A stretch of DNA of 64,000 nt. Source: a virus. A model generated the notes under the pieces. It ran no database searches. It was not told the origin of the DNA and saw only the letters and a program-made list of their open reading frames with translations. Within the stretch, counting starts at the first letter, position 1, and every line of letters begins with the position of its first letter. The stretch covers positions 36,881-100,880 of IMG/VR virus record IMGVR_UViG_3300044981_000021, one strand, 5' to 3'. Of this stretch, positions 1-62,038 are shown piece by piece. A program made the position numbers and the translations under genes.

Positions 1-940
1 GAGAAGCTGTGGTTGCCCCTGTCCACGTAGCAAACTGAGTCGTATTTCCTGTTACGGTTCCTGTTGATGGATTGGCCCCTGCCCCACCGCCAATTAGAGG
101 CAGATTTAACGTAAACGTTGGAACGGTAGGAACCCCCGCTCCAGTGGTATTCGATATAAGCCCTGTAGCCAGACCTGATAGCGATGTTCCGTTAAGACCC
201 GTGTTGGTCATCACCCCGGCGTTGGTTATCGAAGAATCACCACTAAGTGCGACACATTTAGCGAGGTTAGAACCGTTACCTACAACCAAAAACGCAGAAG
301 TACAAGCAGCGGCAATGGCTTGTGAACTACCGTTGGTAGCAAGAAAAGTTGCAGAAGCAGGAACGGCGGCACCATTGATTCCAGTATTGGTCCATACCCC
401 TCCCGCCGTAACTGAAGCATCTTGTGAAATCGCCTGCGCTACGGGAAGATTACCAGCGCTTCCAATGTAAATATCTGTATTTGGCAACGCTGCGGCTACA
501 GGTTGGTTGCTACTATTGGTCCCCACGATTAGGGCAGAAGCAGGGAACGTTCCGCCATTGGCTTCGTTGGCGTTAACTACTCCTGTACCAGAAAATGTAA
601 GCGTTCCCCCTGTTGGGACCGTGCTAGTTCCACCGAGAGAAAGAATGCTGGTGCTGCTTCCAGTCAGGGTCGTTGTTCCGTTGGTTGTCCACTGCGTAAT
701 ACCACCAAACACCGTAGCGTTATTCCACTGTATTTGTCCGTTTGAACCACCCGGGTTTGACCCTGCCCCACCGCAAGCTCCGCCTGAGTCTTGAATCGTA
801 TTAGAATTTAAAAACGATACGCAGTGCCCCGCAGTAACCGCCCCATTAACCGATACGGTACCTCCACCAGAAATTTGGGCTAGAGCAGCGCACTGAAGCA
901 GCAGCAGAACACAAACTACATTTAATGTACGTTTTACCAT
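1..940 (-). CDS. Tail fibre/virion-associated G/T/S/N-rich protein with N-terminal signal peptide (3' end runs off window)
   Basis: ATG at 940-938 overlaps the stop of the upstream ORF (TAATG). Open frame to the window edge: MVKRTLNVVCVLLLLQCAALAQISGGGT...GGSNGQIQWNN. Not in the ORF track because it has no stop in the window. Confidence 0.7.
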   Translation of the reverse strand, partial: MVKRTLNVVCVLLLLQCAALAQISGGGTVSVNGAVTAGHCVSFLNSNTIQDSGGACGGAGSNPGGSNGQIQWNNATVFGGITQWTTNGTTTLTGSSTSILSLGGTSTVPTGGTLTFSGTGVVNANEANGGTFPASALIVGTNSSNQPVAAALPNTDIYIGSAGNLPVAQAISQDASVTAGGVWTNTGINGAAVPASATFLATNGSSQAIAAACTSAFLVVGNGSNLAKCVALSGDSSITNAGVMTNTGLNGTSLSGLATGLISNTTGAGVPTVPTFTLNLPLIGGGAGANPSTGTVTGNTTQFATWTGATTAS

Positions 941-1344
941 TATCCGGCAACCCTACCCGGTGCCCATGAAACCGAATACTCAACAAATACCTGACAAACT
1001 TGCTGAGCGTTGCAATTCAAGGTTAGATCGAATCCTGCCCCGCTAGACGTATTGCGGGTAGTCTCAAATAAGAATCCGGGCGGGCTAGCGCGTTCTGTCC
1101 AGTTTCCCGTACCGCCCGCCGATGGAATCAAGAACGGACCAGCAATATTAGAAAAGTTGGAGTCCTGCCACGTAACAAGCACCGGATTGCTAACATTTTG
1201 ATTCTGAACGTTGTAACTGTGAATACGAACTACGGCTCCGCGCTGTTGGCCGTGGACAGGTCCAGTCTTGTAGGGGTTTGTAACTATCGTAGACGAGTTA
1301 CTTGAGTTGATCGTAACGTTCGCCGTTTGGATGAAAGGAGCCAT
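940..1344 (-). CDS. Hypothetical beta-rich protein, probably virion structural
   Basis: 134-aa ORF with GAGG RBS, translationally coupled to the tail-fibre-like gene. Confidence 0.6.
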   Translation of the reverse strand: MAPFIQTANVTINSSNSSTIVTNPYKTGPVHGQQRGAVVRIHSYNVQNQNVSNPVLVTWQDSNFSNIAGPFLIPSAGGTGNWTERASPPGFLFETTRNTSSGAGFDLTLNCNAQQVCQVFVEYSVSWAPGRVAG

Positions 1345-1354
1345 AATTACCTCA

Positions 1355-1780
1355 CTACATCAATTGGTTTGACGATTGGAGCCATGGCTCATCGTTTGGT
1401 GCGTTGTCCTCTTTTTCATAATCGCGCTGGATAGTTAAAGTTAGCAGGCTTACCGCAAGCATTAACTTCCCGAACTTTTCTTCCACGTTGCCGCGAAACT
1501 CATCGGTCCCCGCCTGTAGGGCCGGTAGCCTAAATCCTTCGTCGAACACGGTTAATCTTTTGAGGACTTCCCAGCAGTCATCAATTCGCATTCCCATCCA
1601 TGCCGCGTTATAGGCTTGTTGGGCGATTTCTTTCTGTTCCTTGGTTAGCTCGCGATCCTTGGCCCACTTTTCAAAACTGCCGACGCGACTGATCTGCAAC
1701 TTTGCCAGCCGCCTAAATCTTTCGAGGCGATCATCCGTGGGAAGTGCTTCAGCTATAACGGTTTCTAGTATTTTTGTCAT
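1355..1780 (-). CDS. Hypothetical protein
   Basis: 141-aa ORF coupled to the upstream ORF (TAATG). Confidence 0.6.
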   Translation of the reverse strand: MTKILETVIAEALPTDDRLERFRRLAKLQISRVGSFEKWAKDRELTKEQKEIAQQAYNAAWMGMRIDDCWEVLKRLTVFDEGFRLPALQAGTDEFRGNVEEKFGKLMLAVSLLTLTIQRDYEKEDNAPNDEPWLQSSNQLM

Positions 1781-2169
1781 TAGTTAACGATCCATTCCGA
1801 CATAAGGTTCGACACGGGAAGCAAAATACTCGACTGGGCTTCGGAATCATAGAAATGCGTGCGGCAGTGATTGTCTTTGAATGATGGGAACGGGCACCCC
1901 TTGGTGCTGCATCTCCCGTCAATCACGATTTCCACGCGCCGCTCTGGCTTGAACTGGCTGCGGAAGGAACATAAGCCGGAATGGCCGAATGGGCGTTTGC
2001 AGGGACACGGGGGCAACTTCATCTTGCCGACTGATCGCCGGATAGATTCTGCGCAAAGGTTAAATTCAACGGAAGCGTCGGCAAAGGTGTTTCCAGGTAT
2101 GGAAACAAAGGCTCTTATTGCCGAACGTTGAGCATCGGTGAGTGCGTGCGCGATATAACTACCTCGCAC
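1780..2169 (-). CDS. Hypothetical protein, HTH-like N-terminus with Cys/His motifs
   Basis: 129-aa ORF with CxC..H..C and C..C..C..H clusters. Confidence 0.5.
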   Translation of the reverse strand: MRGSYIAHALTDAQRSAIRAFVSIPGNTFADASVEFNLCAESIRRSVGKMKLPPCPCKRPFGHSGLCSFRSQFKPERRVEIVIDGRCSTKGCPFPSFKDNHCRTHFYDSEAQSSILLPVSNLMSEWIVN

Positions 2170-2369
2170 GTAATATTAAAGGTTATAGGGGAAAACTTAC
2201 TAGGCAGTACGGCCTTGATAGAATCCAGCGCGGGATTTTAAAACGTGGTCGTCGTGGAAGTGTTCTTGCAGTTCTTCTAGGGAGAGAAAAGGACGCCCGC
2301 CGTCAGGGCACAAATGGCAAAACGCTTTATAGGGCGGCGGGATTATAAATTCAGTTTTTGGTTCTTCGC

Positions 2370-2648
2370 TCACGCGGCTTCTTCGTCTTCTTTGGCCTTC
2401 TTGATTTTTACCTTGACCTTGATATCTTCGGGAACAAGGTCAATCGTTATTCCGTTGTGCTCGTAGTGCTCTCTCTTGTACTTGGTCATCAGGGCAAGTA
2501 TTGCCGCCTTCTGCTCTACTTCCTCGACTAGTAGCGCTTGGCGTTGGTCGCGAGTTTCGGCATATTCTTCGGCTGCCGCCTCTAGTTCCTAAATAGCCGC
2601 ATCTTCGGTACCAGGTAAACGATCTTGCTTAGGCTTTGACTTCGACAT
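2370..2648 (-). pseudogene. Small acidic/basic phage protein with an in-frame TAG at codon 20
   Basis: MSKSKPKQDRLPGTEDAAI*ELEAAAEEYAETRDQRQ...KVKIKKAKEDEEAA; TAG at 2591-2589; otherwise a clean 93-codon frame with GGAGG RBS. Confidence 0.6.
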
Positions 2649-7122: not shown

Positions 7123-7580
7123 AAAAATTCTCCGTGGTATGCGAGCGCATATTTCCTGTAAGCGTCGGCGGCTTCGCGTTCGTCGCTAAACGATCCGAGG
7201 TAGTGACTTTTCCCATCAACCCTGATGTTAGCAATCCATTTTTGGGCCTTTTTGTTCCACGCAACACCCTTAAATTTTGAACTGCTAGGATGTTCTCGGT
7301 GCAAGTTGAATTGATTTTGCTGGCGGGTGGCGATTCGTAGATTCTCTCTTCTGCAATTTAACCCATTGTGGTCCTTGTGGTCTACGACTAACTTTTTATC
7401 AGCAACCCCCATAATCACGCGATGCAACATGTGTAATTTTAAACTAGGCCAATCGGGGCGATAGGCGTATTTATGCTTGTTCCTCACAACAAGCAGGGAC
7501 CATTTCCATTGAGATAAATATTGGTAATCTTCGTCGTCTACTATGGCAACCAAACCACGACTGAGGGGAAGTTCTTTCAT
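7113..7580 (-). CDS. HNH-AP2 homing endonuclease
   Basis: LHRVIMG..VDHKDHNGLNCRRENLR followed by an AP2 domain (SKFKGV..KWIANI..YLGSF..EAADAY). Confidence 0.9.
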   Translation of the reverse strand: MKELPLSRGLVAIVDDEDYQYLSQWKWSLLVVRNKHKYAYRPDWPSLKLHMLHRVIMGVADKKLVVDHKDHNGLNCRRENLRIATRQQNQFNLHREHPSSSKFKGVAWNKKAQKWIANIRVDGKSHYLGSFSDEREAADAYRKYALAYHGEFFCE

Positions 7581-8067: not shown

Positions 8068-8084
8068 TTCATCTCCAGATACAT

Positions 8085-8285
8085 TTAATGTATTTTCGAC
8101 TTTTTCTGTTTGGCTTCCTTGGCGGTTGGGATTTGCTTCTTCAACCGCCACGTCGCAACTTGAGATTCCACGAGTTCCGTCAAAAACCTATCGGGTTCAA
8201 TGTCGAGACTCTGGGCTACCAATTTCGCATCTCTTAATAAGACCGGGTTTATATGCAGGGTTACGGTCGCAATCTTTTCGGACAT
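8085..8285 (-). CDS. Small ribbon-helix-helix-like protein
   Basis: Alternating beta strand (VTLHI) followed by two helices; stop codon lies inside the 13-bp palindrome. Confidence 0.45.
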   Translation of the reverse strand: MSEKIATVTLHINPVLLRDAKLVAQSLDIEPDRFLTELVESQVATWRLKKQIPTAKEAKQKKSKIH

Positions 8286-10374: not shown

Positions 10375-11269
10375 GGGCGGCTATTTTCCCTTCTTTTATC
10401 TCGTACAGGTTGCTTGTTTTGTTGTAGATGAAATCCAAATCCTTGGCTCGCTTGGCAGCTATGGCCTGAATGCTCTTTGGAGCCTTGCGAAGTTCGGCCA
10501 ATAGACTATTGAAATCGGCTACGGTTTTCAGCCCAGCAATTGTTTCTGCCCACTCAGTAAGCAGGCTTTGTGCTTCTTTCTGTTCCGCCGATTGATGGTT
10601 TATCCTTTCCTTCATTAAACGTATCGTAACCCCTAGTAAATCATGGTCATTTAAGGTGAAAGAAATTGGATCAAAACCACAGGGATTCTTACCAAAGGCG
10701 TTCTCGCGGGGAGAGAAATCAATGATGCGATCTTTGCCCCTGATAAAGATGCGGCCCATAGCATCTACCGACTTGTAAATCTCAGCTTTTGACCCACCTT
10801 GAACATCGAGCCGCTCGACAATATCATCTCCCGAACGCTGTTCGTCCATGTGGGCAATTAAAACAACGTCTTTACCGAACGTATTCAACATCTTAAGCCA
10901 TGCGGCGAAGCGAGATTTAAGTGCCCCGAAACCTTGTAAAGTCAACGCCCCGCCACGACCCAGCTTGGGATTGTCCGCGATAATATCGGCAGTCAGGTAA
11001 TCCAAGGTTCGTCCTGCGGTATCAACGATAATGGTCTTGTAGGGGGCTAGGTCGGCAGCCACGGGATCGGCAATGTCTGACCACGAAGAAACTTTAACCG
11101 TATCCTTGCGGTTAGATGCACGATGGGAACCGTGATCGGTATCAAGCAACAGCGGGTCATCGGCAGTATAGGCTAGGGTAGTTTTACCTAGTCCCGGCCC
11201 CGAATATATGCAGACGTTGACATGTTCAATTAACAGCGGTTCGGAAGATTTGGTGATTTTTAGCGTCAT
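10343..11269 (-). CDS. Sak4-like AAA_24 ATPase (single-strand annealing recombinase)
   Basis: IYSGPGLGKTT, LDTDHG, TIIVDT, VLIAH motifs. Confidence 0.85.
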   Translation of the reverse strand: MTLKITKSSEPLLIEHVNVCIYSGPGLGKTTLAYTADDPLLLDTDHGSHRASNRKDTVKVSSWSDIADPVAADLAPYKTIIVDTAGRTLDYLTADIIADNPKLGRGGALTLQGFGALKSRFAAWLKMLNTFGKDVVLIAHMDEQRSGDDIVERLDVQGGSKAEIYKSVDAMGRIFIRGKDRIIDFSPRENAFGKNPCGFDPISFTLNDHDLLGVTIRLMKERINHQSAEQKEAQSLLTEWAETIAGLKTVADFNSLLAELRKAPKSIQAIAAKRAKDLDFIYNKTSNLYEIKEGKIAAHVPTTEAIFG

Positions 11270-13485: not shown

Positions 13486-13944
13486 TTATGCAACTTCTTG
13501 AAATGAATGAGTGGGTATGTCGGTACTGGTTTCTGTAACGACATTGCGGAACCGCTCCAAAAAGGCGATGCTTTGGTTGAGTTCGCTGATTTGGGATTGA
13601 AGGTTCTCAACTTCCGTCTTTTTGCCGTAAATCATGGTATCGAGCTTGGTGGCAAATTGCGATGGGTTGTTGAGCAGTTCGATGAGCGGGTTGACCTTCG
13701 CTTTGTTGTACGGTCCACGAGAAGTACGTTTAACGTAGGTCCGCGACTTTGCGACGGTTTCTTTGTGGGATACCTTGCCGAGCCTGTATGCCTTAGACCC
13801 TGTGCTTGTTCCTGAGACGCCGTGTTGCAATCGGTGAGTGCCCAATTTGGGACGCTTGTCGAAAGTCGTGCGCTTCCCGTCTGCGGCACATTCAGGACAT
13901 GGAAACGGCGGTCCCTGAATTTCGTTGGTTGAAATGTGATTCAT
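13486..13944 (-). CDS. C2H2-finger, basic and coiled-coil protein
   Basis: CPEC..F..L..HRLQH; contains the 13725 palindrome. Confidence 0.6.
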   Translation of the reverse strand: MNHISTNEIQGPPFPCPECAADGKRTTFDKRPKLGTHRLQHGVSGTSTGSKAYRLGKVSHKETVAKSRTYVKRTSRGPYNKAKVNPLIELLNNPSQFATKLDTMIYGKKTEVENLQSQISELNQSIAFLERFRNVVTETSTDIPTHSFQEVA

Positions 13945-14470: not shown

Positions 14471-14872
14471 GATAATAAATTCTTTATATTTATTGCCTAC
14501 AACAATCATCCATTTGTTGCCCTTTAATTTACCGTAGGGAATTTCATAACAGTCGCCATCGTTGGTGACCACAAACAACACGTCCGCCGCGTTTACGTTA
14601 AACGTGGCATATCTAGCCTTACCGTCGGCCCGCATTGATGTTGAGCACAAACGAACAACCCACTTAATTCCACGCTTGCCAATTTTCTTTTGGCAGGTAA
14701 CTCGTACTTGTATTCGAGAAAATTTTCCATGCGCAAAAACCACAAGATCGAACGGCTGACTATCGGTCAACGGTATGCATACGGTATGGCCTAGCGATGT
14801 ATAGTGGGCGATGGCCACACCTATACCGTGGTCGCCTTTTTGTTTCGAGCCTCGATGTTCATTTGGCTTCAT
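14462..14872 (-). CDS. PD-(D/E)XK homing endonuclease (I-Ssp6803I/PDDEXK_5-like)
   Basis: KQKGD.G...VCIPLTDSQPFDLVV..RIQVR..CYEIP. Confidence 0.8.
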   Translation of the reverse strand: MKPNEHRGSKQKGDHGIGVAIAHYTSLGHTVCIPLTDSQPFDLVVFAHGKFSRIQVRVTCQKKIGKRGIKWVVRLCSTSMRADGKARYATFNVNAADVLFVVTNDGDCYEIPYGKLKGNKWMIVVGNKYKEFIIGE

Positions 14873-17522: not shown

Positions 17523-17597
17523 TGGAGCTGAACGTCAGGCTTCAACTGACATCTCCGAATTCACAAGATTCGTGTTCTGGTTTTGAACTAGTTCAGC
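17523..17597 (-). tRNA. tRNA-Thr(TGT)
   Basis: CGAAT-CTTGTGA-ATTCG, CCA. Confidence 0.85.
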
Positions 17598-20313: not shown

Positions 20314-20432
20314 TTGAACTACGTTAAATGTACTTTCCCCGATTGTTTATGGCGTACCTTCCCCCGCCTGCCATTGGGCTGGTGTCGGGAAGCAATCGGC
20401 ATGAAATTGAACATTCATTGGTTAATGAAACA

Positions 20433-26384: not shown

Positions 26385-26677
26385 TGATTCTCCAGTTGTT
26401 TTGAGTATTTACGGGCAGCAATAATACCGCGAGGATTACCGAAAACATAAAAACATTTACTGCCGCGATGGTCTAGAAAAGAATAAAAGGAAAGTCTGAC
26501 ATTATGCCGCGCCCAATCGTAGACCGTTTCCCTGCGACCTATTTGAAGAAGTTCCATAACATCCCAAATAGTCAATACTTCATCGTCGGGAAGGGAATCG
26601 AGAATTTCTATTAAGCGATCTATCTTCGTGGGCAACCTTTTAGTTGCACGCATACGGCGGAGTATAAAGCATGGCAC
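26381..26677 (-). CDS. HTH-like protein
   Basis: LTIWDVMELLQIGRRETVYDW. Confidence 0.5.
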   Translation of the reverse strand: MPCFILRRMRATKRLPTKIDRLIEILDSLPDDEVLTIWDVMELLQIGRRETVYDWARHNVRLSFYSFLDHRGSKCFYVFGNPRGIIAARKYSKQLENQ

Positions 26678-26723
26678 ACTATTTTGTGCAAGTTTATTTT
26701 TTCGATGGATCAGAAAAGTACAT

Positions 26724-26996
26724 TTAACGTAGGTGCTGGCGCACTTCCTCTAGCGTGACCAGCTTCTTAACTTCATCTCTAATTTCTCTCAGCGTTTCGC
26801 CCATTCCTTGATTTGCTAGTTCCTCTCTTACGGCGATCCGGAATTCCGTTTTCCAATAATCCACCGACTTCTCCCCTGAATTACCGTTGCCATTCCTGCC
26901 GTTTCTAATCTTGGCTACAAACGTGAAGGTTTTGTCGAGGACGAGGACGCAGAAGGCGCAAGCCCCCGCTAGTTCTGGCATTGAGATATCGGGCAT
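26724..26996 (-). CDS. Membrane-anchored coiled-coil protein
   Basis: N-terminal TM segment, C-terminal coiled coil; stop lies inside the palindrome. Confidence 0.55.
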   Translation of the reverse strand: MPDISMPELAGACAFCVLVLDKTFTFVAKIRNGRNGNGNSGEKSVDYWKTEFRIAVREELANQGMGETLREIRDEVKKLVTLEEVRQHLR

Positions 26997-30758: not shown

Positions 30759-32390
30759 GCCAACCCTCCATGGGTAGTGTCGGTTTGCAAGGCATCGTCA
30801 ATTCTGTAGATTAAGTCTTGTACGTCTTCGGCCCAGCAACTACATGGACCAGATTCTTCCGCATATTGGATGTAGTCAGGAGACTTCGGGCAGGTCGGCG
30901 CACCGTCGCCATTGTTGTGATTTCTGAACCGCAAGAGCATTTGGTACATCTCGGCTTGTAGGGCGGGAGGGATTTTCATTTCTTCAACCTCTTGGCCTTG
31001 TTTAGCTGATTGGTGAACTTGGTGACTAACTTCTCCCAACCATCCGCCCGAACGTGACCCTTTAGTTCACCGCCGTAGATTTGGCGGTCGTTGATAAAGA
31101 CGCCGACATTGTAATCGGAAACATCGGCTAGTTTGCTCTTGTTTGTGAAAACCACGATTAGCGCCATACGTTTAATGTACTTTCTTGGTCCACTGGTCAC
31201 AAACCCCTATCATCATCGGCCCGAGCGGCTCGTTATGTATCGCGGTACACTCCCATTCTGCATAATTAAGGATGATTGGTTGACGATCCAACTCGACCCT
31301 CGTGCGATAAATCGTCAACAGATATCCGCAGTAGAGACAAATTGATATCGCAACAACTGCCCACTGTTTCTTGAGCATACATTTAATGTACTTATTTCTT
31401 TTGTCGTTCGTTGAGGATTAGCATTTGTGACATTACGGCCCACGCGACTGCTAATGTTGCCTTAGCGGTAGCATCGTGGAAGTCGTACCAAAGCGCGAAT
31501 CCGAGATTTGTGGTGGTTACAACCGAAAGCAATAATATCCACATACAACATGAGATGATATCACTTCTTGGAAAGTTTCAGTTTATGAATGACGAACATG
31601 GCCACGGGAACGACAAAAAGCACAACGGTCCAAGGCTTGACAATAGTAGCGAACAATGCGGGAAAGTGTATACCTACAGTGATCCCGCCAATGGCCAGGA
31701 CGTACCAACTACAGCCGAGGATGATTTGCAGGCGGTAGAACACCCCTAGTCTCCCGTTTTACGCCAGTAGGACCAGTCAGAGAAAGAAGCGATTTTCTCT
31801 CCGTTGGGATTTTTATCTGTCGGGTAGGCAAAAATCATAAGAACCCTGCCATCGTCACAGTAAGTTACATTTTTGAAGGCGAAGGTTACTTTTCCGGTTG
31901 TGGTTGGAGTGGGCGGTTCAAAACAAACAACTTCAACTTGCATGGGTTTACTCCGTAAATTATTGAAACGCAGCCTATTCCACGCTCTTTTGGGCGGCAC
32001 GTGGTACCCGGAGTTCCCTAGACTTATGTCGATCTAAGCGGGATCGACTGCCGGTTGTGGGTGAAACCCGCTGCGTTTCTTCCTCACCTATACACTACGG
32101 CGGGGAAAGCGTCAAGAAATGTTTTTATTTTCACCAGAACACCCCGAAAGCGGGGGTTTCGTTACAAAGAATAGCAACTGTACCCTTATGTTGGTTGTTT
32201 AGTGGCTAAAGCTCCGCTGTATAGGTACTTCTTTTAATCCTAAAGCCTTACGGAGCATATTTGCATACCAATCGCATTCTTCTTTGTTTCCATCGTAATC
32301 AAGCTTAAAGGATTGAACTCCTGAAATAATCCATACCCTACACTTCTGGCTGCGGTAACGTCGAACTTCAATCTCTACTTTCTTCGCCAT
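30755..32390 (-). CDS. Run of small hypothetical genes (30755-30979, 30976-31167, 31172-31378, 31392-31544, 31561-31743, 31746-31943, 32199-32390), several membrane proteins
   Basis: Tightly coupled short ORFs; three have TM segments. Confidence 0.5.
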
Positions 32391-32870
32391 AAATACATTA
32401 GATGTATTTTGAAAGAAAATTGTCGCAAACTTCTGACAAATTAACATATCGTTGACCATAAAGCACTTACGGTTAAATATATGACACCTTAAGAAAAACA
32501 TGGGGTGAGTAGTAAGCACTCGCACTTCCCTATCTTTGGGCACCTACCCCGCCCCCTAAAACCGATTACCACCCTACAGTCTCGCCTACTCTCTCGCGCA
32601 TTGCCTGGATTCGCCTTTTGTTCGCTCATTTTGGCGTAATGTTCGGAAGCTTTCGGGGGCAACTCTATGATTCTAATGGGTCCAGTGGTACGCATTATTA
32701 CATACTGGGTAAGGATTGTGGCCGCATCGTGGCCGCTAGAATCCCGATGTAATCCCTACTAGATTAGTAGTGATTCGGCGCCAACTAATTAATTAATTGT
32801 GCGTCCTGCGGTGCAACGTTTTACTTGTGGTCCGCATCGGATGGTTTGGAGGTGAAAAATAGCAATAACG

Positions 32871-33370: not shown

Positions 33371-33665
33371 ATTGTCCTTCCGTAACCTTGCACTCGATAT
33401 CATCTCAGGCTAGCCTAGGTTCGGGAGGTTATTCCAATGAGCGTTATATGGCAGTCGCATGAACGTGGCGAGTTAGAAACCTTTGTAGAGTGGACATTGC
33501 GCTGGCTAGGACGCTATTACAGAGCAAGAAAATAGCCTAGGCTTGTTAGGACCTAGGCTAGCAGGTACATTTAATGTACTTCTCGTTAATCGTCCGTATC
33601 GAACCATTCCCCTAGCACGATTACAATCCCGACTAGGGTTAGCATTGCCACAAAGCCTAGCAGAT

Positions 33666-38137: not shown

Positions 38138-38371
38138 AACGACTACTGTACGAAATCGCACGCGAGATTCGCAAGGATTGGACTAAGCCGTATTTTGGCG
38201 CGGTCCCATACCTTGAAGCCATGGAAACCCTGAAAGATATTAATCAGGATTACTAATGCGGATTCCGCAGAATCCATTGTGCTTTACTTCTTGTCCAATG
38301 CTCAAACATGGAAGGGCGAGACTGCGCGGCGCATCAAAAAAGAACTGAAAGAACTGACCAAAGTACGTTAA
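38134..38371 (+). pseudogene. Phage early protein with a 1-nt insertion
   Basis: LYEIAREIRKDW.KPYFGAVPYL.AM..DY[+A]YADSAESIVLYFLSNAQTWKGETARRIK; 238 nt = 79 codons + 1. Confidence 0.65.
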
Positions 38372-38396
38372 ACGTACTTTCGGAGAGGGAAACACA

Positions 38397-41152: not shown

Positions 41153-41154
41153 GC

Positions 41155-42208: not shown

Positions 42209-42648
42209 TCTGCGGGCCGGAGAGCAAGAAACTGCTTGTACGGCCCTACTTTACTTTGTATCTGCGGAATCAAGCTAGCCACGCTGTACCCATAAGTAAC
42301 CAATAATGCCCGATCTGCATTGTTCCCACATTGTTCTAAGGACTTCTTGAGCAGTTTGCAACCCACAGATACATTTAACGCAGGTTCTAATAATTCTGCT
42401 TGCGATTGCTTAAATCCTAGCTCCTTGGCTGCTTCGGGATTGATCTGTAATAGCCCTAGGCGGCTATTAGGGACCGCTAGGCGCTGAATTGTGGGGTTAA
42501 AGGCCATTGGGTCGGGACTTTGCTCTACGCGCTCTGGGTGCCATTCTGAGAGCGTATCGACGATTGCCATAATGAATTCAGGCGGTAACCCTTCCGCAAT
42601 GGACGTATCCGCCACAATGGCTGCAAGTTCTGCTTTGCTATTAAGCAT
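42184..42648 (-). CDS. SLT lytic transglycosylase-like protein
   Basis: GLLQI..A..LG..LLEPALNV..G..LL; the catalytic ES position reads LS. Confidence 0.7.
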   Translation of the reverse strand: MLNSKAELAAIVADTSIAEGLPPEFIMAIVDTLSEWHPERVEQSPDPMAFNPTIQRLAVPNSRLGLLQINPEAAKELGFKQSQAELLEPALNVSVGCKLLKKSLEQCGNNADRALLVTYGYSVASLIPQIQSKVGPYKQFLALRPADHATCSMK

Positions 42649-48917: not shown

Positions 48918-49591
48918 CTTGGGATAAGGCTATTCACAAATAAAGAACGACTGACGCCGGGGCTTGTAACATTGCCGTTGGTCGTAGCTTTCCAATAGAC
49001 GCTGTACGTTTCGAGGTTAAGTAACGAGTGACTAAGTGGAGCAGGATCGGTATAGGCGAGGCTCACAATGCTAGGCGTATTCGCGTTGCTTGACGTAGAT
49101 TGAGTGAATATCTGCGACATCAATTGGCCGCCCCGATAGATGGCGAACTGGACCTGATCGGCAGGATTCTGTGATTGCAACGGAATTGTGGCGGAAATCG
49201 TCGCGGGACCATTTACGACTAGCGATAACTCCATGTTTGGTACGGTACTCCACGACGTGCTCGCGTTTACGTTAGCCACGGCTCCTGATAGAACTTGCGT
49301 AGCTCCCGTGGTTCGCGGGACGGAACTAGACTTAATTGTAGTAATGGTATCATGCGTGATTGCTACGGGGGGAATCTGCCACATCTGCCGCCTAACCCCC
49401 GGCGATGCGTTCATAAACGGCGAGTCGTAACCTACACTGGTATCGTAGACATCCTGCGGAGAAGCATAGCCACGGGGCCGAATAGGGGCAGGAGAGCGGC
49501 TAGGACCGATGGTATTTATCTCGACAGACGCTTGTTGTTCTGCTGCGTCTTTGGCCTGTTCGAGAAGTACATTTAATGTAGGTCGCGTCAT
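48914..49591 (-). CDS. Virion structural protein (putative)
   Basis: S/T-rich C-terminal beta domain; contains the 49568 palindrome. Confidence 0.55.
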   Translation of the reverse strand: MTRPTLNVLLEQAKDAAEQQASVEINTIGPSRSPAPIRPRGYASPQDVYDTSVGYDSPFMNASPGVRRQMWQIPPVAITHDTITTIKSSSVPRTTGATQVLSGAVANVNASTSWSTVPNMELSLVVNGPATISATIPLQSQNPADQVQFAIYRGGQLMSQIFTQSTSSNANTPSIVSLAYTDPAPLSHSLLNLETYSVYWKATTNGNVTSPGVSRSLFVNSLIPS

Positions 49592-53061: not shown

Positions 53062-53658
53062 TTATCCTGTCTCGCCTTTCGCGTTAATCCATTTGGTACG
53101 TTTAACGTATGCGATCATATTTTGGAGAATTTCTATGTCCTCTTTGATTCCACCCAAGGCCATATTGCATGTACTACACAGTAATCCGCGAACACAACGA
53201 CCACAGGATTTGCTTCCAGGGCAACAAGAATGGTCGTGATCTACGTGAAGCCTTCGCACCCTTCCAGTAGTCGGCTCCGTGGCTGGACAAGTGGCGCAAT
53301 GCCCATCTTGGGCATTAAGCATTCTCGCGTAATCTTCAATCGTTAAATTGTAGTTGTACCCAAGGAGATAATCTGAGCGATATTCGGGGTGTGCTTCGCG
53401 CCACCTTTTGTTTAGTACGCCACGTTGGACCTTGTTGGCGTTGTTCCATGCGCGATTATAAAAAGTAACTTTTTGGCGGTTATTGCGCTTCCAATTCTTG
53501 CAGCGCTCCTTGTTGTAATCGCGGTTTTCCTCGAAATAGGCGTCGTTATACTCTTTGACGTGTTCTTTGTTTTTTTCTTTCCACGCCCTCATGTACGCGG
53601 CCTTCTTGGCTTTGCGATCTGCTAGTTCTTGGTCCGTTAAAACTTTCTTTTTAGACAT
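53062..53658 (-). CDS. Endonuclease VII-like homing endonuclease
   Basis: Q.G.CA.C..LHVDHDH..VRGLLC..CN..LG. Confidence 0.9.
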   Translation of the reverse strand: MSKKKVLTDQELADRKAKKAAYMRAWKEKNKEHVKEYNDAYFEENRDYNKERCKNWKRNNRQKVTFYNRAWNNANKVQRGVLNKRWREAHPEYRSDYLLGYNYNLTIEDYARMLNAQDGHCATCPATEPTTGRVRRLHVDHDHSCCPGSKSCGRCVRGLLCSTCNMALGGIKEDIEILQNMIAYVKRTKWINAKGETG

Positions 53659-53699
53659 GCAACTAGTATAGCACAAGCTGCCGCAAAGTGTTTATTTAT

Positions 53700-55046
53700 T
53701 TATCCTCCGCGCATTATTGCTAGGTCTGGGAAGTAACTTTCCGAGCGTAGTTCTTGGTCCTTGGAATCAAGCGCACGCAAGGTGTCGGCTTGTGCTTTAG
53801 CAAATTGAGTCGGGTAGCGAACGTCCTCAAAAAAATTGTAGCAAGCGGCAAGCACATTGCTTCGCAGCACGTATCCAAAGTTGTCCGGCCACGGTGCCCA
53901 CGTATTCTGAAGCGAAGTCTTGATCGGCGCTTTGAGTTGGTAGAAGATAAAAGCTTGCCAGATTTGAGTAGACGGTACGGGCCAAAATCGGAAGGTCAGC
54001 GTGGTTCCAAACGCCTGCCCGGTAGGCGATCCAATCGTTTCTAAGATACCGTTAGCAATGATAATTGGCGTATTGGCCGACACAAATAATACCTTGGGGT
54101 TAGATGAAAAGGTAGTCGATGTAGTAACTAGATTTTGGGCCGCATTTACGCTCAACCTCCATGTAGTGGCCGTCGTGGAATCGTTAAGCAAGTAAAAAGA
54201 CGATCCAACCAGGCTGGTTTGAGTAATGGTTATCTGTCCCGCCGAATTTACTCCTAGCAACCAATTCAGTCCGTTTGGGTCGGTCAGCACTACGGGCGTA
54301 ACCGTGGGCACGTTTTCTAGCAACATACATACCTTAAATGGCGGCTGAATGATGCTTTCGATATATAGCGTAGACACCACTTCTATGTCGTGTACGGGCC
54401 TCACAGTGGCCGTATTCATGTAATCCTGTAGGGTACAGTGGGAAACCCAATTTAAGTCGCCTATGCCTTGTCCACCGTCGTTTGCTAGCCCTGTCGTGGC
54501 TACATTAAATGTAATTCCTAGAACGCCTCCGTTGGCCCCGATGACCTGACCGGTAATGACTGCGTTGGTTACGTTGTAGGCCGACTGAAAGGCTCCCGTA
54601 ATAGTTACGGTCTGACCTGGCGTAGGAATGCTTGACCCCGTGGTTACGGGTTGCGACCCGGGAGGGCCATTCAATCCAAAGGTTCCATTGGGGGCGAAGT
54701 CTGAGAATAAGGCCGTAACAACGTTTCCCGACTGCGACAATCCCGGTCCATTCGTAGAAATTACCGAATTCAGGTGTACGCTGCACACGTTCACAAATCC
54801 TGCCGTAACACTCATTTGGCAGCCCGAGAGCACATAATCTTGCTGATATGGGATAGTTGTGAACGGTAGAATGGCTCCCTTGTTGAACTTCCAATCATAG
54901 GGAGAGGAAAGCAGAGATTGCAGAGTGTCGTTACAGATTGACAGCGCAGGCTCGTTAGCCACGCCTCCGGCATTGACTAAGGGACTCATCCTTACGTGAA
55001 CTTGTGCCCACGAGATTATGTCCTGAAGTAGTAGCGTTGATGACAT
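53700..55046 (-). CDS. Head-tail adaptor-like protein with inserted beta domains
   Basis: N-terminal ..N..LQ.LLS..YDWKFN and C-terminal FRFWPVP..Y..KAP..W..WPD. Confidence 0.55.
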   Translation of the reverse strand: MSSTLLLQDIISWAQVHVRMSPLVNAGGVANEPALSICNDTLQSLLSSPYDWKFNKGAILPFTTIPYQQDYVLSGCQMSVTAGFVNVCSVHLNSVISTNGPGLSQSGNVVTALFSDFAPNGTFGLNGPPGSQPVTTGSSIPTPGQTVTITGAFQSAYNVTNAVITGQVIGANGGVLGITFNVATTGLANDGGQGIGDLNWVSHCTLQDYMNTATVRPVHDIEVVSTLYIESIIQPPFKVCMLLENVPTVTPVVLTDPNGLNWLLGVNSAGQITITQTSLVGSSFYLLNDSTTATTWRLSVNAAQNLVTTSTTFSSNPKVLFVSANTPIIIANGILETIGSPTGQAFGTTLTFRFWPVPSTQIWQAFIFYQLKAPIKTSLQNTWAPWPDNFGYVLRSNVLAACYNFFEDVRYPTQFAKAQADTLRALDSKDQELRSESYFPDLAIMRGG

Positions 55047-55049
55047 AGG

Positions 55050-56879
55050 TTAATTTTGGATACCCCAGCAATCTATCGCTGGCCACGATGCCGCTGCTGC
55101 TGTAATAGCAACATAGTTAACGGTCATACTTCCGGCTGATTTACTGACCACATAGGGTGTGCTTGGAAAATTTGTCGGCGCTCCTACGGGGCTACATCCC
55201 GCAGCATAGGAAGTGCTGGAAAACGTTCCCGGCCACGTAATCGTGATTGCCGTGCCGCAAGCATTCCCCGCAGAACTCCCCGTTGTGCAACCATTGGCAG
55301 AACCCTTCAACGATTGATATACCCCGGTTCCGGCATTAAGGGTCAGTCCAACCGTAGCATTTCCCCCGGCGTCGGGTACGCTGTAGGTCACAGATGCAGC
55401 AGGATTGCCGACAGATAAAACAGTATTGTGTGTATTGCCATTGAAATTGATTTGGTTGGATGTTCCATTATTTACCCACTGCCCTGGGCTAGCCGTCCCG
55501 TTTTGTAGAATCTGCATCCAGATATGATTTGCTCCGTCTTGAACTTCAAAAAACCCACTGGAGTCGGCCAACAATTGCCACTTGGGTACGCCTGCTTTAT
55601 ATATGGATAAACCACAAGAAGTGTTAGGGCAATCGACACCGATAGGTTGAGTTCCGCTTCCCGAAGCAGAAAACAAAAGAGTGTTTGTCCCCGTATCCAC
55701 GGAAGAATTCCACCATTTAACTTGACTATAGGTGTGGTTTTGGGGCCAATCTATTAACTGCCCTGTCGTATAAGTGAGGTTATAATCTGCCGAGATGTGA
55801 GTCGTAGAAGCATTATTGATCTGACAGTTAGTAATTGCATCTGTACCCGCCGACTGCGAAGCAAAAACTACTTGAGTTACCGTCTGCCCACCGCTAAACA
55901 CGCCCAAGTTAACACAGTTTAACAATCCGCCTTGATTAAGAATAAAGGCAGTAATGGTCCCGCTGGTTATATCGTCGGCCATTTTGCTGTTGGCAATATT
56001 GATTGAGCCGCCCGCGTTTACAATGTAGGTTGCCGTCGCTGTACCGCTGATGTTCTCGAAGTGACCACCGTTGATCTGAAATGTAGACGTACCATTGTTG
56101 ATGCATCCGCTGGTGTTGTCATCGCACGATACTCCTGCCATCCAAATATCTGTGCTATTGACCGGGACATTTAATCCGTAATTCAGGTTTTGGAAAATAT
56201 CGTCATTGACGTAGCGGATTAATTCTTCTCCGCCAAGATGGTTAGCCCCGTTCAGGCATCCATGAAGTTGAGATGTTTCGATAGTAATATTAAATGCCTT
56301 GTTGAAATTCAGACATTGACCACCGGGAAAACCCGAAACATTGACGCCCGAAAGAACCGCCTGATCTAATCCGTTTCCGGGCCCAATAGCAATTCCGCTT
56401 CCCGTTCCACTGCCCGGACCCGTGAGCGCAACATCGCGAATACCCGCCGCTCCTAGGTGGGATGTTCCCCAATCGAGTTGGATTGCGGTTGAGCTAGTTG
56501 GGATAAAGTTTAACGTTACAGGTCCGGCAGGATCGCCTTCTAACAACGCAGGCTTGTTGTTAACACCAACGGTAATTGTTGTCGAGAAATTATAGCTCCC
56601 TGCGGCTATTTTTATCCTACAACCGAGCGATGGACACGAGGCATAGGCTTTATTAATCTCGTCTCCGATATCTATCCCGCCCCGAGAAAGGCTAGAGTCA
56701 ACATACTGAACATTCTCTAGGGCTTGAACAAAAACCTTGGCAAAGGTTTGAATCCCCGTCCATGTGCAGTTTTGATCTAGGGCGCAAAAGATATGCGTTG
56801 TTTGCCCGGAAAGAACCTGTAGACCAATAGCCCAAGTCAAAACCAAAACGATTGGGATTCCAATTAAGTATTTCTTCAA
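55050..56879 (-). CDS. Tail spike/fibre with a pectin-lyase-like beta-helix and N-terminal signal peptide
   Basis: INKAYASCPSLGCRIKI..G.Y.F.T.I followed by parallel beta-helix repeats; MKKYLIGIPIVLVLTWAIG..G-Q. Confidence 0.7.
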   Translation of the reverse strand: MKKYLIGIPIVLVLTWAIGLQVLSGQTTHIFCALDQNCTWTGIQTFAKVFVQALENVQYVDSSLSRGGIDIGDEINKAYASCPSLGCRIKIAAGSYNFSTTITVGVNNKPALLEGDPAGPVTLNFIPTSSTAIQLDWGTSHLGAAGIRDVALTGPGSGTGSGIAIGPGNGLDQAVLSGVNVSGFPGGQCLNFNKAFNITIETSQLHGCLNGANHLGGEELIRYVNDDIFQNLNYGLNVPVNSTDIWMAGVSCDDNTSGCINNGTSTFQINGGHFENISGTATATYIVNAGGSINIANSKMADDITSGTITAFILNQGGLLNCVNLGVFSGGQTVTQVVFASQSAGTDAITNCQINNASTTHISADYNLTYTTGQLIDWPQNHTYSQVKWWNSSVDTGTNTLLFSASGSGTQPIGVDCPNTSCGLSIYKAGVPKWQLLADSSGFFEVQDGANHIWMQILQNGTASPGQWVNNGTSNQINFNGNTHNTVLSVGNPAASVTYSVPDAGGNATVGLTLNAGTGVYQSLKGSANGCTTGSSAGNACGTAITITWPGTFSSTSYAAGCSPVGAPTNFPSTPYVVSKSAGSMTVNYVAITAAAASWPAIDCWGIQN

Positions 56880-57609: not shown

Positions 57610-57613
57610 GCTC

Positions 57614-58374: not shown

Positions 58375-59265
58375 TTATTTTGCCTCTGCGGATACTGTAT
58401 CACGAATTGATTGTGGGCGACTAATTGCTTCGGTAACTTTAATGTCGGGATTAATAGCTAATTTTTCGTCTATTTCGGCTTGTGCTATCCCTGAGTCTGC
58501 AATCGCTACGAGGTTCCCTGCATAGCAATATGTTCCCCAATGCTTCAACTTTACAAACGGGGCCATCCAAACCTTGCCGCCAATCGACTTCCACAATCGG
58601 CTGAAATAGTAATCTTCGGACAGGTAGTAATCTGACGCGGGATCAACCTCGGCCCGAAAGAAGTCATATATCTTGGGACCATAGAAGGATTGCTCGTCCG
58701 ACATTGGGGTATAGGACTTAACCGCATTAGCGGCGATAAGCTTCTCGTATACCGAGCGATTCAAGAGCATGAAGCCCGTTCCCGCGTCGGTAATTTCATT
58801 TAATTCATCTAGGCGAATTGTGGTGATTTCAGGGCTAGTTCTAGTTCCGACGATATTGAAAACGAAGTCTCCACATAGAACTTCCAAATCTCTAGGTTCT
58901 ATCTCGGGATTCATCTTGATAGCTCGTTTAGCCCTAGCCCAATTCATCTGCTTCTTTGGATAAGCCCCGCAGACAAATTCTTCATTCATGCAAAGCAACT
59001 TAAGTACGTCGGCCCCATCAAACTCAATATCGCTGTCGATAAACATTTGGTGCGTAGATGAGGAAGACAGGAATAAGTCGGCTTGGCGGTTTCTAGCGCG
59101 AGTTACAAGGCTATCGTGGACGAAATTGATCTGTAACTGCACTTCGTATGCTCTACATAGGCTAGCAAGATTCAACAACCCATTCACGTAGTTCGTGTGG
59201 CATTGAAGATTGTAGACCGGGGTGGTTACAAAGAGGCTTTTGCCCACTAGTTCGTCTACTCGCAT
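58375..59265 (-). CDS. GT-A fold glycosyltransferase
   Basis: TP.Y; SLVTRARN; FIDSD (DxD); GTGFML; SEDYYF. Confidence 0.85.
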   Translation of the reverse strand: MRVDELVGKSLFVTTPVYNLQCHTNYVNGLLNLASLCRAYEVQLQINFVHDSLVTRARNRQADLFLSSSSTHQMFIDSDIEFDGADVLKLLCMNEEFVCGAYPKKQMNWARAKRAIKMNPEIEPRDLEVLCGDFVFNIVGTRTSPEITTIRLDELNEITDAGTGFMLLNRSVYEKLIAANAVKSYTPMSDEQSFYGPKIYDFFRAEVDPASDYYLSEDYYFSRLWKSIGGKVWMAPFVKLKHWGTYCYAGNLVAIADSGIAQAEIDEKLAINPDIKVTEAISRPQSIRDTVSAEAK

Positions 59266-59269
59266 ACGT

Positions 59270-59827
59270 TTAATGTATTTCCTTGTACCAGATTCTTGTA
59301 TTCGGTCCCACGGCAAAGCCCTCTAGGAGATTGTTGCAGGCCATTACGACGCCCGGCGAAGTAATGTCATAGTCGTGCCCACAGATTACCCCCCCCTGTT
59401 CAAGTACGGATAGACCGAATTGGATATCCCGATAGACGCTATCATAGTCGTGCTGGCCGTCTACGAATACCATGTCGATTCCGGTTGGCCTAACTTCTGC
59501 GGGCAGTGTAATGCTGCCAAAATTGTCGGCTATCACGTTGTTGAGTTGTTCCTTGGTTATTTCTTTGTGATTAGCTTTCCATGGAACTACTTTCTTGCTA
59601 GCGATATGTTCGCCCATGTTCTTGATAAACGCATCATAGACGGCTTCGCGGTCTTTCCAGCACATGATTACGTCGCTAGGTCCGTGGAAATGGTCACAGG
59701 CGATTACGAAGCCTTCGGTATTGTCGGCCATGGCGCGAGTAGAGCGGCCATAGTAACTGCCTAGCTCAAGAATCTTCTTGTGCTTAGAAGCTAGTTCGGC
59801 TAGGAACTCTAGTTCCTGATTAGCCAT
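59270..59827 (-). CDS. Class I SAM methyltransferase (Methyltransf_24-like)
   Basis: LELGSYYGRST; FVDGQHDY; GGVICGHDY. Confidence 0.9.
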   Translation of the reverse strand: MANQELEFLAELASKHKKILELGSYYGRSTRAMADNTEGFVIACDHFHGPSDVIMCWKDREAVYDAFIKNMGEHIASKKVVPWKANHKEITKEQLNNVIADNFGSITLPAEVRPTGIDMVFVDGQHDYDSVYRDIQFGLSVLEQGGVICGHDYDITSPGVVMACNNLLEGFAVGPNTRIWYKEIH

Positions 59828-60644: not shown

Positions 60645-60659
60645 AGTGAACTCCTTTGC

Positions 60660-61046
60660 CTAGACCCCTTGGTTGAACACGAACAGCAGCCGCGAGTTGG
60701 TATTGATGTTGGCCGAGCTACCCATGCCATAGAACGTTACGTTGATTCCCGAGCTATTCTGAAACACGGACGAAATAGCCACATTGGTCGTGTTCAGGAA
60801 GTTGATGTTCGATTGCTGAATGTTTGGGGCGGGGGAATTGTAGTTCGTGTTGGCTAGAAGCGTAACCGCAATAGGCAACTGATAAGTGTTAGAAGTGAAA
60901 AATGATCCGCTGCCGTAAGCGGGGGCGACGAACGTTACGGTGGTGGCTGTATTGGCGGTCAACGCTATGTTCTGATTACAAACCGCCTCGCACCAGAGTC
61001 CCACGGTCGAAGATTGTGCGGATGTTAGGTTTCCTACGTTACTCAT
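60660..61046 (-). CDS. Virion structural protein (putative decoration)
   Basis: AAGGAG RBS; N/T/S-rich. Confidence 0.55.
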   Translation of the reverse strand: MSNVGNLTSAQSSTVGLWCEAVCNQNIALTANTATTVTFVAPAYGSGSFFTSNTYQLPIAVTLLANTNYNSPAPNIQQSNINFLNTTNVAISSVFQNSSGINVTFYGMGSSANINTNSRLLFVFNQGV

Positions 61047-61165
61047 GGAAGATATCTCCTTGGGCCATGGGCGTTTTGCGCGGCCCCATTAACAGTTAAA
61101 ATCGTAGAGAACATTTAGGAATAGACACAAGTGCTTCGCCGTGCTATATTTCCCCCTAGAGAGAA

Positions 61166-61540
61166 ATGGCCTATTCGCCCGCGTCAATACAATCAGGCAG
61201 CCTAAGCAGTTTAATGCCTAATTTTTTAGGAAATCCAATGTATAATGGGCCGCTGTCCAATCCCTGTAGCAACATGGGTCAGGCGTACTATTCTCAAGCA
61301 GACTTGCAAAATATCTACGCATCCGCACAGGCACAAATCGCATCTAAAACAGAGAGGAAAACAACCATGCTAGCCGACGCACGTAAATACGTTTCTGACA
61401 ACCGCGACCTGATCTATACGGTCATCTTCGTAGCCATCCTTGACCATCTTTTATTCGATGGCGCGTTCCGCGAGAAGATTAAAAGCCTCGTGGATGGGTT
61501 CCTGAATCGAGCACAAGCAAAACACGCAGCCACGGAGTAA
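61166..61540 (+). CDS. Hypothetical membrane protein
   Basis: C-terminal TM segment; alternative start at MLADARK after GAGAGGA. Confidence 0.5.
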   Translation: MAYSPASIQSGSLSSLMPNFLGNPMYNGPLSNPCSNMGQAYYSQADLQNIYASAQAQIASKTERKTTMLADARKYVSDNRDLIYTVIFVAILDHLLFDGAFREKIKSLVDGFLNRAQAKHAATE

Positions 61541-61600
61541 TCCCATGAAGAAAAACGTTCTCGCGTTTCTGTTTGGCATTATTGTCGCTGCCCAAATCAA

Positions 61601-62032
61601 TTGGGTATTGCTGTTTGGGTTTGGAGGGCTATGCTTTATTCTTGGATACGCCGTTCACCTAAAATAATCTTCTTGCTGTGGATTCCTGCGCTTATGCTAT
61701 GCCGCCCAGACGTAACATGGAAAGCTGTAACCTTCATACCGCGCCACGTTCGTTGCAGCGATCACCCAAGACCGTTAGTGGAAAGCACTCAACCAATTAA
61801 AATTAATAGCAATCAATTCCGTGGCTACGTTCGCGGCATGAAGGCAGTCGCGGATGGATGCGTGGATGTTTTGTTTGAGAAAGACGACAGAACAATCGTC
61901 AATTTCCATGTTTGGCGTGGTCAGCGATATGATGGATGGCCGCCACTTTGGGTCGGGATGTATGGAAACGTAAACTTAGAACTAAATCCAATATGTGGCT
62001 ACTCAGTTACCTCTTCGCAACAACTACATTAA
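61601..62032 (+). CDS. Membrane-anchored hypothetical protein
   Basis: Hydrophobic N-terminus; stop lies inside the 62025 palindrome. Confidence 0.5.
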   Translation: MGIAVWVWRAMLYSWIRRSPKIIFLLWIPALMLCRPDVTWKAVTFIPRHVRCSDHPRPLVESTQPIKINSNQFRGYVRGMKAVADGCVDVLFEKDDRTIVNFHVWRGQRYDGWPPLWVGMYGNVNLELNPICGYSVTSSQQLH

Positions 62033-62038
62033 ATGTAC

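Follow-up and report, generated by a model that had tools for sequence, protein, structure and literature searches.

Dispersed repeats with dyad symmetry have been documented in the Cluster O mycobacteriophages, where a 17-bp word, TGTTCGG-NNN-CCGAACA, is present in more than 30 copies across genomes of approximately 70 kb (PMC4351075). About 40% of the copies lie in short intergenic gaps, some are near the 5' ends of genes, and about a third are intragenic. The repeats have no meaningful orientation, are conserved within the cluster and have a dimeric protein as their predicted binder, and the phages are not obviously temperate (PMC4351075); their function is still open. One asymmetric case is understood, that of the stoperators of Cluster A phages (L5 gp71 type), which are 13-mers found more than 20 times genome-wide, in promoters and short intergenic spaces (PMC9283540). 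In that system a phage protein controls the whole genome, and its specificities diverge between relatives. Stoperators are asymmetric and orientation-dependent, and are bound by the monomeric, two-domain helix-turn-helix (HTH) repressor of a temperate phage (PMC9283540). In phage SPbeta, SPBRE repeats occupy many intergenic regions; they were predicted in silico decades before binding of the master repressor MrpR to them was found by chromatin affinity purification sequencing, and MrpR is a 320-aa protein of recombinase fold that has lost its catalytic residues (PMC10516654). In this study, we describe an array of this known kind, formed by copies of a 13-bp palindrome, TACRTTWAAYGTA, in a 64,000-nucleotide stretch of viral DNA (the window). 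The window comprises bases 36881-100880 of the complete circular IMG/VR record IMGVR_UViG_3300044981_000021 (100,880 bp, 48.5% G+C; hereafter G000). We tentatively identify the binder as a 66-aa ribbon-helix-helix (RHH) protein, orf66, whose gene ends within one of the sites. Coordinates are those of the window unless given as genome positions. The literal motif was not found in the literature that we searched.

An earlier note on the window, made from its letters alone, had listed 14 exact copies of the palindrome, and all 14 were recovered exactly where it had placed them. Dinucleotide shuffles predicted 0.01 copies, and none of 100 shuffled sequences reached 14. When one mismatch or fewer was allowed, the window contained 18 sites against 0.31 expected. 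The three one-mismatch copies that the note had listed (14594, 32394 and 42370) are real, although its count was one short, a fourth copy at 10611 having been missed. The whole genome of G000 contains 18 exact copies, one with G at the centre, and six one-mismatch copies against 0.7 expected, while two-mismatch copies are at background level. As estimated from counts, the half-sites alone show no obvious excess. Synonymous-codon shuffling of the called genes left 7-10 copies against 18 in the real sequence, 7 of which lay outside the shuffled codons; thus, the shuffling removed essentially all of the intragenic copies. The site has a 6-1-6 geometry, which becomes 9-1-9 in an extended form: a symmetrised logo of 35 sites from three genomes widened the motif to 19 bp, in which 76% of half-sites have A at position -3 and T is nearly absent from positions -1 and -2. 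The copy at 38364 forms the core of a perfect 21-bp palindrome, as the note had observed.

To identify relatives, we used a portal protein profile, which retrieved 80 IMG/VR loci; the motif was present only in the closest of these. Earlier DNA and single-protein searches of an isolate phage collection and IMG/VR had given nothing useful, and an IMG/VR scan with the extended form of the G000 word (the TAC-type site) returned only chance or AT-rich matches. Twelve exact copies were found in G001 (103,362 bp; portal 82% identical) and five in G002, a 38-kb fragment, while reversed-pattern controls gave none. Five G000 sites (genome 229, 5600, 37797, 57200 and 63599) align to a site in G001 or G002 within DNA that is otherwise only 65-80% identical, and a sixth (genome 44960) is orthologous by synteny, both genomes having it at the RHH stop codon. 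At these orthologous sites all ten fixed bases are kept and only the R, W and Y positions differ; the five aligned pairs together have 15 such positions, of which 9 changed. The central W is flipped in three of the five pairs, which indicates that the site is truly symmetric. A rule of orientation seen in G000, with the central A on the sense strand, is lost between orthologues and was abandoned.

Sites within genes provided a test of whether the DNA or the encoded peptide is conserved. In-frame intragenic sites are read as xxT-ACR-TTW-AAY-GTA, encoding T-[L/F]-N-V. Their fixed third-codon positions were identical in 10 of 10 comparisons, against a synonymous background of 50.4% in the flanks (P=0.001), and in one orthologous pair leucine was replaced by phenylalanine with the W retained. 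Together, these observations indicate that it is the DNA word that is under selection. Copies deep inside genes (genome 18525, 89977 and 91381) are the ones that lack conservation. Enrichment over codon-preserving shuffles, conservation at orthologous positions and constraint at synonymous sites, all checks that the earlier note had proposed, came out in favour of its suggestion of a symmetric protein site acting along the whole genome. We conclude that the repeat is very probably an array of symmetric, double-stranded DNA sites for a protein, maintained by selection.

The sites are biased toward gene junctions. In four genomes annotated with a rough gene caller, and with a boundary defined as 35 nt or less from a start codon or 8 nt or less from a stop codon, 23 of 43 sites were at boundaries, against 12.5% of random positions (P ~1e-10). 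Some of this bias could merely come from where the genome tolerates a word that contains TAA on each strand. At five to seven G000 sites, the upstream gene has the central TAA as its stop codon. Three G000 sites have an ATG at +12 (GTAtg, with no Shine-Dalgarno sequence), three occupy codons 5-8, and two precede, by 20-25 nt, a start codon that has a good ribosome-binding site. Sites are present in all gene modules of the genome.

A second form of the motif was found in a more divergent relative, G003 (102,319 bp; portal 69% identical; 53.6% G+C). This genome has no TAC-type copy. Instead, it contains eight copies of CCATTWAATGG, six of which extend to TGWCCATTWAATGGWCA. The two dialects have the core CATT-W-AATG in common and differ in the outer bases (AMV-TACRTT versus TGW-CCATT); their 21-bp forms are AAAGTACGTTAAACGTACTTT and TGTCCATTTAATGGACA. 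Three G003 sites are at junctions that bear TAC-type sites in other genomes, namely the RHH stop codon, the genome 63599 junction, and the end of a histidine-phosphatase gene, at which the site is exact in G002, has one mismatch in G001 and is deleted in G000. The core CRTTWAAYG was counted 26, 21 and 13 times in G000, G001 and G003, respectively, which are the three genomes that encode the RHH protein, and zero to four times in 18 further portal-clade records that lack it, six of them at least 90% complete.

A distant phage, G030 (IMGVR_UViG_3300037258_000147, loci L139-L144; 104,680 bp, 97% complete, 47.7% G+C), emerged when IMG/VR was scanned for the extended G003 motif. Its genome contains nine copies of GTCCATTWAATGGAC, a word very close to the G003 dialect, and controls gave none. 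These sites (25875, 38753, 43578, 52538, 58776, 67427, 72708, 83777 and 89099 of G030) are at gene junctions; at 89099, TAATG forms a stop/start overlap where a 342-aa helicase-like open reading frame (ORF) ends and a 271-aa ORF starts. Only the structural core is common to G030 and G000 (portal 32% identical), and the replication module is different.

The earlier note had named four candidate binders in the window, and the best of them proved to be its RHH-like gene, orf66 (8085..8285, minus strand), whose TAA stop codon coincides with the centre of a site in G000, G001 and G003. RHH proteins place a sheet of two strands in the major groove, and they usually bind symmetric sites of 13-21 bp as dimers of dimers. 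The AlphaFold2 monomer prediction of orf66 (mean confidence score, pLDDT, 81.8) has an extended segment at residues 1-13 and helices at 14-26 and 31-48, and this model has the beta-alpha-alpha order and the core of approximately 45 residues that define the RHH fold. Its top Foldseek matches were Arc, CopG, PutA-RHH, CopA, TacA, NikA, AmrZ, ParD and MatP; nearly all of these top matches were RHH proteins, with template-modelling scores (by target) up to 0.78, root-mean-square deviations of 1.9-2.8 A and E values of 0.3-2. Its neighbours in a protein language-model atlas were likewise RHH families. The protein is conserved in G001 (69% identity) and G003 (50%), and a further 26 portal-clade records contained no homologue. 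By analogy with Arc and CopG, the residues predicted to face the DNA are those 7, 5 and 3 places ahead of helix A, which are T7, T9 and H11 in G000 and G001, and I, K and E in G003. H11 is kept in all eight TAC-type sequences (G000 and seven homologues), which vary at positions 7 and 9. ENA/JGI contigs of approximately 100 kb carry the closest portal and RHH homologues (P0010, P0011, P0017 and P0131).

These observations suggest a model in which the palindromes would be docking sites on double-stranded DNA for a sequence-specific protein of two-fold symmetry, kept by selection at some 20-25 places in the genome, mainly gene junctions. The most likely binder in G000 would be its own orf66, probably as a dimer of dimers over a 19-bp footprint in which each dimer reads one AMV-TACRTT half. 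It may act as a genome-wide regulator of transcription, serving as repressor or roadblock where operons begin, at 5' ends and at junctions, and one point of action would lie immediately downstream of its own gene, in front of the primase-helicase operon. We judge this model as a whole to be evenly poised between right and wrong. Taken separately, a role of orf66 as the binder in this clade is at best evenly balanced, and control of transcription as the main role of the sites has about an even chance.

Several results weigh against orf66 as the reader of the sites. It had no Pfam match at E<=0.05, RHH models included, and no PDB sequence match at E<=10; PF01402 and PF12651 found nothing in the genome, generic Pfam RHH models being without power here. 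The covariation between its residues and the motif represents a single evolutionary change. Sites lie ahead of a promoter and of terminators, cover a start site, fall in first codons or sit at a convergent junction, and with contexts so mixed no single transcriptional mechanism is evident. The gene tracks the motif through G000, G001 and G003, as the earlier note had proposed that a binder's gene should, but fails to do so in G030, where neither tblastn nor hmmsearch --max found a protein of the orf66 family (G003 control, 2e-29). A weak syntenic tblastn match in G030 was not RHH-like and was discarded. Either the reader in G030 is non-homologous or has diverged beyond recognition, or orf66 is not the reader anywhere.

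It is possible, if doubtful, that the RHH protein and its approximately 20 operators switched specificity together, from AMV-TACRTT to TGW-CCATT, within a clade of ~100-kb phages that probably infect Acidobacteria. On that account the dialect was also adopted by a distant phage with another replication module, and the array would be a portable, co-evolving layer of whole-genome control, or a specificity system resembling immunity, in phages in which no standard lysogeny module is seen.

Because G030 carries the motif without the RHH protein, the decoy for a host regulator that the earlier note had listed among its options retains some weight. By this account a host regulator or nucleoid protein binds the sites and is exploited or titrated, the dialects reflect the orthologous factors of two hosts, and the link to the RHH gene is incidental. 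G030 and G003 carry nearly the same palindrome of 15-17 bp, yet they have only about 20 proteins in common, none a recognisable regulator, and no DNA-binding protein or recognisable regulator was common to all four motif-bearing genomes. On the other hand, three genomes have a site that overlaps the RHH stop codon, and motif density in the phage is more than 100-fold higher than in genomes of the Acidobacteriota. In 301 sampled Acidobacteriota genomes there was no excess of either dialect, with six copies or fewer per multi-megabase genome, similar to the control, and the same was true of two Acidobacteriota metagenome-assembled genomes (MAGs) that carry distant prophage relatives (5 versus 5 and 4 versus 5 in the control); as this phylum is only the presumed host, the test is a weak one. 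We consider a host factor unlikely.

Of the small proteins, the one best conserved across the four motif-bearing genomes (57-76% identical) is a 57-aa DUF6496 protein of pI 11.5 (genome 19990-20163, minus strand; L005:1990-2163), encoded upstream of and overlapping a terminase-like gene. An acidic 130-aa protein common to G003 and G030 was rejected as a binder, being absent from G000 and G001.

The individual sites illustrate the variety of these placements. Among those whose central TAA ends a gene, the site at 8080..8092 closes orf66 and lies 25 nt upstream of the next gene's ATG (ribosome-binding site GGAG), an arrangement that recurs in G001 (36903) and, with the variant motif, in G003 (58301). 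The site at 26719..26731 ends the ORF at 26724-27044(-) and lies between this stop codon and a sigma70-like promoter block, TGCACA-18-TATACT (26661..26690, minus strand), which is kept in G001 and is located 29 bp downstream of the site; orthologues of the site are found in G001 (56473) and, as the variant motif, in G003 (31866). Two sites flank the short ORF at 31172-31378(-): that at 31167..31179 supplies its stop codon and has an ATG at +12 with no Shine-Dalgarno sequence, and that at 31378..31390 abuts, at +12, the ATG of this ORF. Similarly, the site at 59265..59277 ends the gene at 59270-59827(-) and has the ATG of the gene at 58375-59265(-) at +12. At a convergent junction, the site at 62025..62037 ends the ORF at 61601-62032(+) and is 2 nt from the end of the gene at 62039-62911(-).

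Other sites are located near start codons or in non-coding DNA. The site at 38364..38376 lies 20 nt upstream of the ATG at 38397(+), at the head of the main plus-strand gene block, and the one-mismatch copy TACATTAGATGTA (32394..32406) is 3 nt upstream of a minus-strand ATG. Codons 5-8 (T-L-N-V) are occupied by the site at 917..929, in a 2078-aa fibre-like gene starting at 940(-), and by that at 49568..49580, in the gene at 48914-49591(-); the former has an orthologue in G001 (27519) with the change from leucine to phenylalanine described above, and the latter has decayed to TTCTTTTAATGTA in G001. In the tRNA cluster, the site at 20320..20332 sits between conserved TCGGGG/CCCCGA arms, just upstream of a terminator-like hairpin on the minus strand, and its G001 orthologue (48007) has the centre flipped. 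The intergenic site at 33566..33578 is 5 nt upstream of a strong terminator with a 10-bp stem, also on the minus strand. Terminator-like hairpins are enriched only in the 20-40 kb part of the window (36 versus 21.6).

The remaining copies are mostly intragenic. They lie within a 152-aa ORF (13725..13737, in 13486-13944(-)), near the 3' end of an Endonuclease VII-like gene (53097..53109, 4 nt downstream of a -10-like TATGAT) and within an adaptor-like gene (54501..54513, in 53700-55046(-)); the last two are not conserved in G001. One-mismatch copies are found within an AAA_24 gene (TTCATTAAACGTA, 10611..10623), within an SLT lysozyme-like gene (TACATTTAACGCA, 42370..42382) and at 14594..14606 (TACGTTAAACGTG). 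Outside the window, genome site 229 falls inside a NAD-dependent epimerase/dehydratase-like gene of ~345 aa that runs across the contig ends, and this copy is kept in three genomes as T-F-N-V. The epimerase-like gene itself (genome ~100673..999, minus strand; window end from ~63793) spans the assembly junction and adjoins a Methyltransf_24 protein (L004:1439-2794).

The frequent coincidence of the central TAA with a stop codon raises the question of whether the palindrome functions as RNA, as a hairpin with UAA in the loop and the next AUG in or after the 3' arm, serving termination-reinitiation coupling or an RNA-binding protein. The +12 start codons without a Shine-Dalgarno sequence, which are also seen in G001 and G002, and the true stop/start overlap at TAATG in G030 are consistent with this idea, and a palindrome reads alike in either transcript. 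However, the stem would comprise only 5 bp and be A/U-rich, and R and Y vary independently. The sense strand has A.C rather than G.U in three of the four asymmetric G000 sites (about 8 of 10 over G000, G001 and G002 by our reading of the strands), and among the sites are ones between convergent genes, within the tRNA cluster, in coding sequence and past start codons. An RNA hairpin is quite improbable, a minor rival that the stop/start arrangement keeps in play.

The portal and adaptor belong to the SU10/phiEco32 structural lineage, and the half-site AATGTA matches the core of the phiEco32 gp36-type promoter element, tAATGTAtA, from which transcription starts 6-8 bp downstream (PMC8948821). 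Thus, the sites might be promoters read by a sigma-like factor of the phage. Matches to a sigma70-type promoter, a consensus that may not be the host's, were depleted throughout, with 18, 15 and 16 matches in the successive 20-kb segments of window positions 1-60000 against 23.4, 25.1 and 26.8 in shuffled sequence (15-18 versus 23-27 overall). Nevertheless, no Sigma70_r2 domain was found in the genome, nor was a T7-type RNA polymerase, in a search run without a positive control. The only sigma-like feature was the HTH of orf187 (11760-12323, minus strand), a sub-threshold Sigma70_r4 match (18.5 bits) present in G000, G001 and G003. Its predicted recognition helix, CSRERIRQL, is identical in all three genomes and so does not track the motif, and there is no adjoining site in G001 or G003, so that orf187 was also set aside as a binder. 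A directional promoter has no need of a perfect dyad, the centre flips between orthologues, start codons are found on both sides of the sites (-14 to +33), and the G003 and G030 variants lose GTA. A promoter function appears very improbable.

The earlier note had described the copies as a genome-wide grid. Its largest gap of 7.2 kb, near copies included, is correct for the window, but regular spacing was not borne out. Exact copies did not differ significantly from random placement (P=0.18 for the largest gap, 0.07 for the coefficient of variation), inclusion of near copies gave marginal values (P=0.03 and 0.014), and G001 showed no evenness (P=0.70 and 0.58; largest gap 29 kb), so that the near-copy evenness is not robust. 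This bears on the possibility that the sites organise the chromosome for condensation, segregation or packaging, as the MatP-matS and ParB-parS/KorB-OB systems do. MatP reads the 13-bp palindrome matS at 23 sites, has extra domains and acts on a macrodomain of the host chromosome. A role of this kind agrees with the whole-genome distribution, with the slight evenness when near copies are counted (P=0.014-0.03) and with the use of RHH folds by MatP, ParG and omega, MatP being among the Foldseek matches of orf66. Many sites are also away from recognisable promoters, an argument that was made for the Cluster O repeats (PMC4351075). In contrast, it is at junctions and 5' ends that copies are conserved, and beyond a basic tail orf66 has no extra oligomerisation or partner domain. 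ParB_N (PF02195) and ParA/CbiA (PF01656) were absent from the complete genome while controls were positive, and the partition protein that the note had entertained found no support. We regard chromosome organisation as improbable.

Of the other candidates named in the earlier note, none fitted. The LuxR-type HTH protein (7607-7822, minus strand) contains a true GerE domain (9e-12), the sole one in the genome, but is missing from both G001 and G003, genomes that retain the motif. This stand-alone 71-aa protein is confined to G000 among the three complete relatives, and its gene was inserted together with an HNH-AP2 gene between orf84 and the primase-helicase gene. The NUMOD3-like ORF neither fits nor tracks the motif. 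The same is true of the variant recombinase (41131-41691, plus strand), which is conserved in G001 and G003 but whose identity to G000 (40% in G001, 49% in G003) is out of step with the motif. It consists of a catalytic domain of ~180 aa that retains R, K, H, H and Y, with R replaced by K in HxxR (HxxK), and it lacks a core-binding domain. Twenty other conserved small proteins had no DNA-binding domain.

An enzyme could also be the reader, that is, a phage nuclease, nickase, recombinase or DNA-modifying enzyme for which the palindrome is the target. The genome is rich in HNH/Endonuclease VII genes, and the short recombinase-like gene is conserved in all three relatives. However, the 1-bp spacer of the 6-1-6 site leaves no room for the crossover spacer of 6-8 bp of a tyrosine recombinase, and cutting or nicking a palindrome on both strands would break the genome at approximately 20 places. 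Palindromes of the restriction type are as a rule avoided rather than kept at orthologous junctions, and the recombinase-like protein diverges out of step with the motif. The HNH/Endonuclease VII proteins common to the motif-bearing genomes are ordinary homing-type enzymes and were rejected as binders. An enzyme target is hardly credible. At least five homing-endonuclease-like genes of the HNH/Endonuclease VII type are present (7113-7580, 15442-16005, 17535-18293, 47598-48365 and 53062-53676), one fused to an AP2 domain and one a zinc-ribbon HNH in the tRNA cluster, and their positions differ between relatives.

The phage itself is largely unannotated. It encodes a primase-helicase, a Sak4-like ATPase and an exonuclease, and 25 tRNA genes are located in the window, while most other proteins have no family match. 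The portal has more than 100 metagenomic homologues, several of them on contigs of ~100 kb. Homologues 38% and 32% identical lie inside the Acidobacteriota MAG contigs CAZISB010000001.1 (L117; 807 kb) and CAWAZO010000001.1 (L118; 411 kb), respectively. These two loci are probably prophages, which hints that Acidobacteriota are the host phylum of the lineage and that temperate relatives exist. The gene at 55050-56879(-) was first taken as the portal gene and proved to encode a secreted beta-helix protein of 609 aa; its metagenomic homologues are 740-780 aa long, it may be a depolymerase or tail spike, and two short contigs were all that a metagenome scan with it gave. The gene at 22375-23163(-) encodes a papain-family cysteine protease domain.

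Compared with known systems, the array is closest to the Cluster O repeats, with which it shares dispersed perfect dyads, both intergenic and intragenic placement, and a predicted dimeric binder. The two are unrelated in sequence, host and lineage, and their geometry is different (7-3-7 in Cluster O versus 6-1-6, or 9-1-9, here). Furthermore, no binder has been proposed for Cluster O, whereas here a variant motif occupies orthologous junctions and an RHH gene is linked to the sites. The earlier note's comparison with stoperators holds for distribution, since 23 of 43 sites are at boundaries, but not for symmetry or orientation: Cluster A sites are asymmetric, while ours are perfect palindromes whose centre flips freely (in 3 of 5 pairs), with an RHH candidate. 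No integrase of normal length was found among the Pfam-scanned proteins, which represent part of the ORFs. The resemblance that the note had seen to a LexA box of the GTTC-N7-GTTC type found no support: the site is an inverted repeat, TAC-N7-GTA, rather than a direct repeat, its outer bases change between related phages, and the 303 Acidobacteriota genomes showed no excess of it. With the phiEco32 gp36 promoter it has only AATGTA in common (PMC8948821). The SPbeta repeats demonstrate that such arrays can be the sites of a master repressor; unlike MrpR, the short recombinase-like protein here keeps most of its catalytic residues, lacks a core-binding domain and does not track the motif.

Among RHH proteins, CopG, which recognises a 13-bp pseudosymmetric element, and Arc and Mnt of phage P22 are repressors with short symmetric operators. 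They act at one or two operators, not at approximately 20, and orf66 lies outside their sequence families. What this clade adds to the documented arrays is two dialects at the same junctions, a 66-aa candidate with matching residue differences, and a distant phage without it. The sites would mark regulatory boundaries in an uncultured phage lineage that otherwise cannot be annotated. If the reading of orf66 as their binder is correct, the array would provide a natural example in which a regulator and its whole set of operators changed specificity together.

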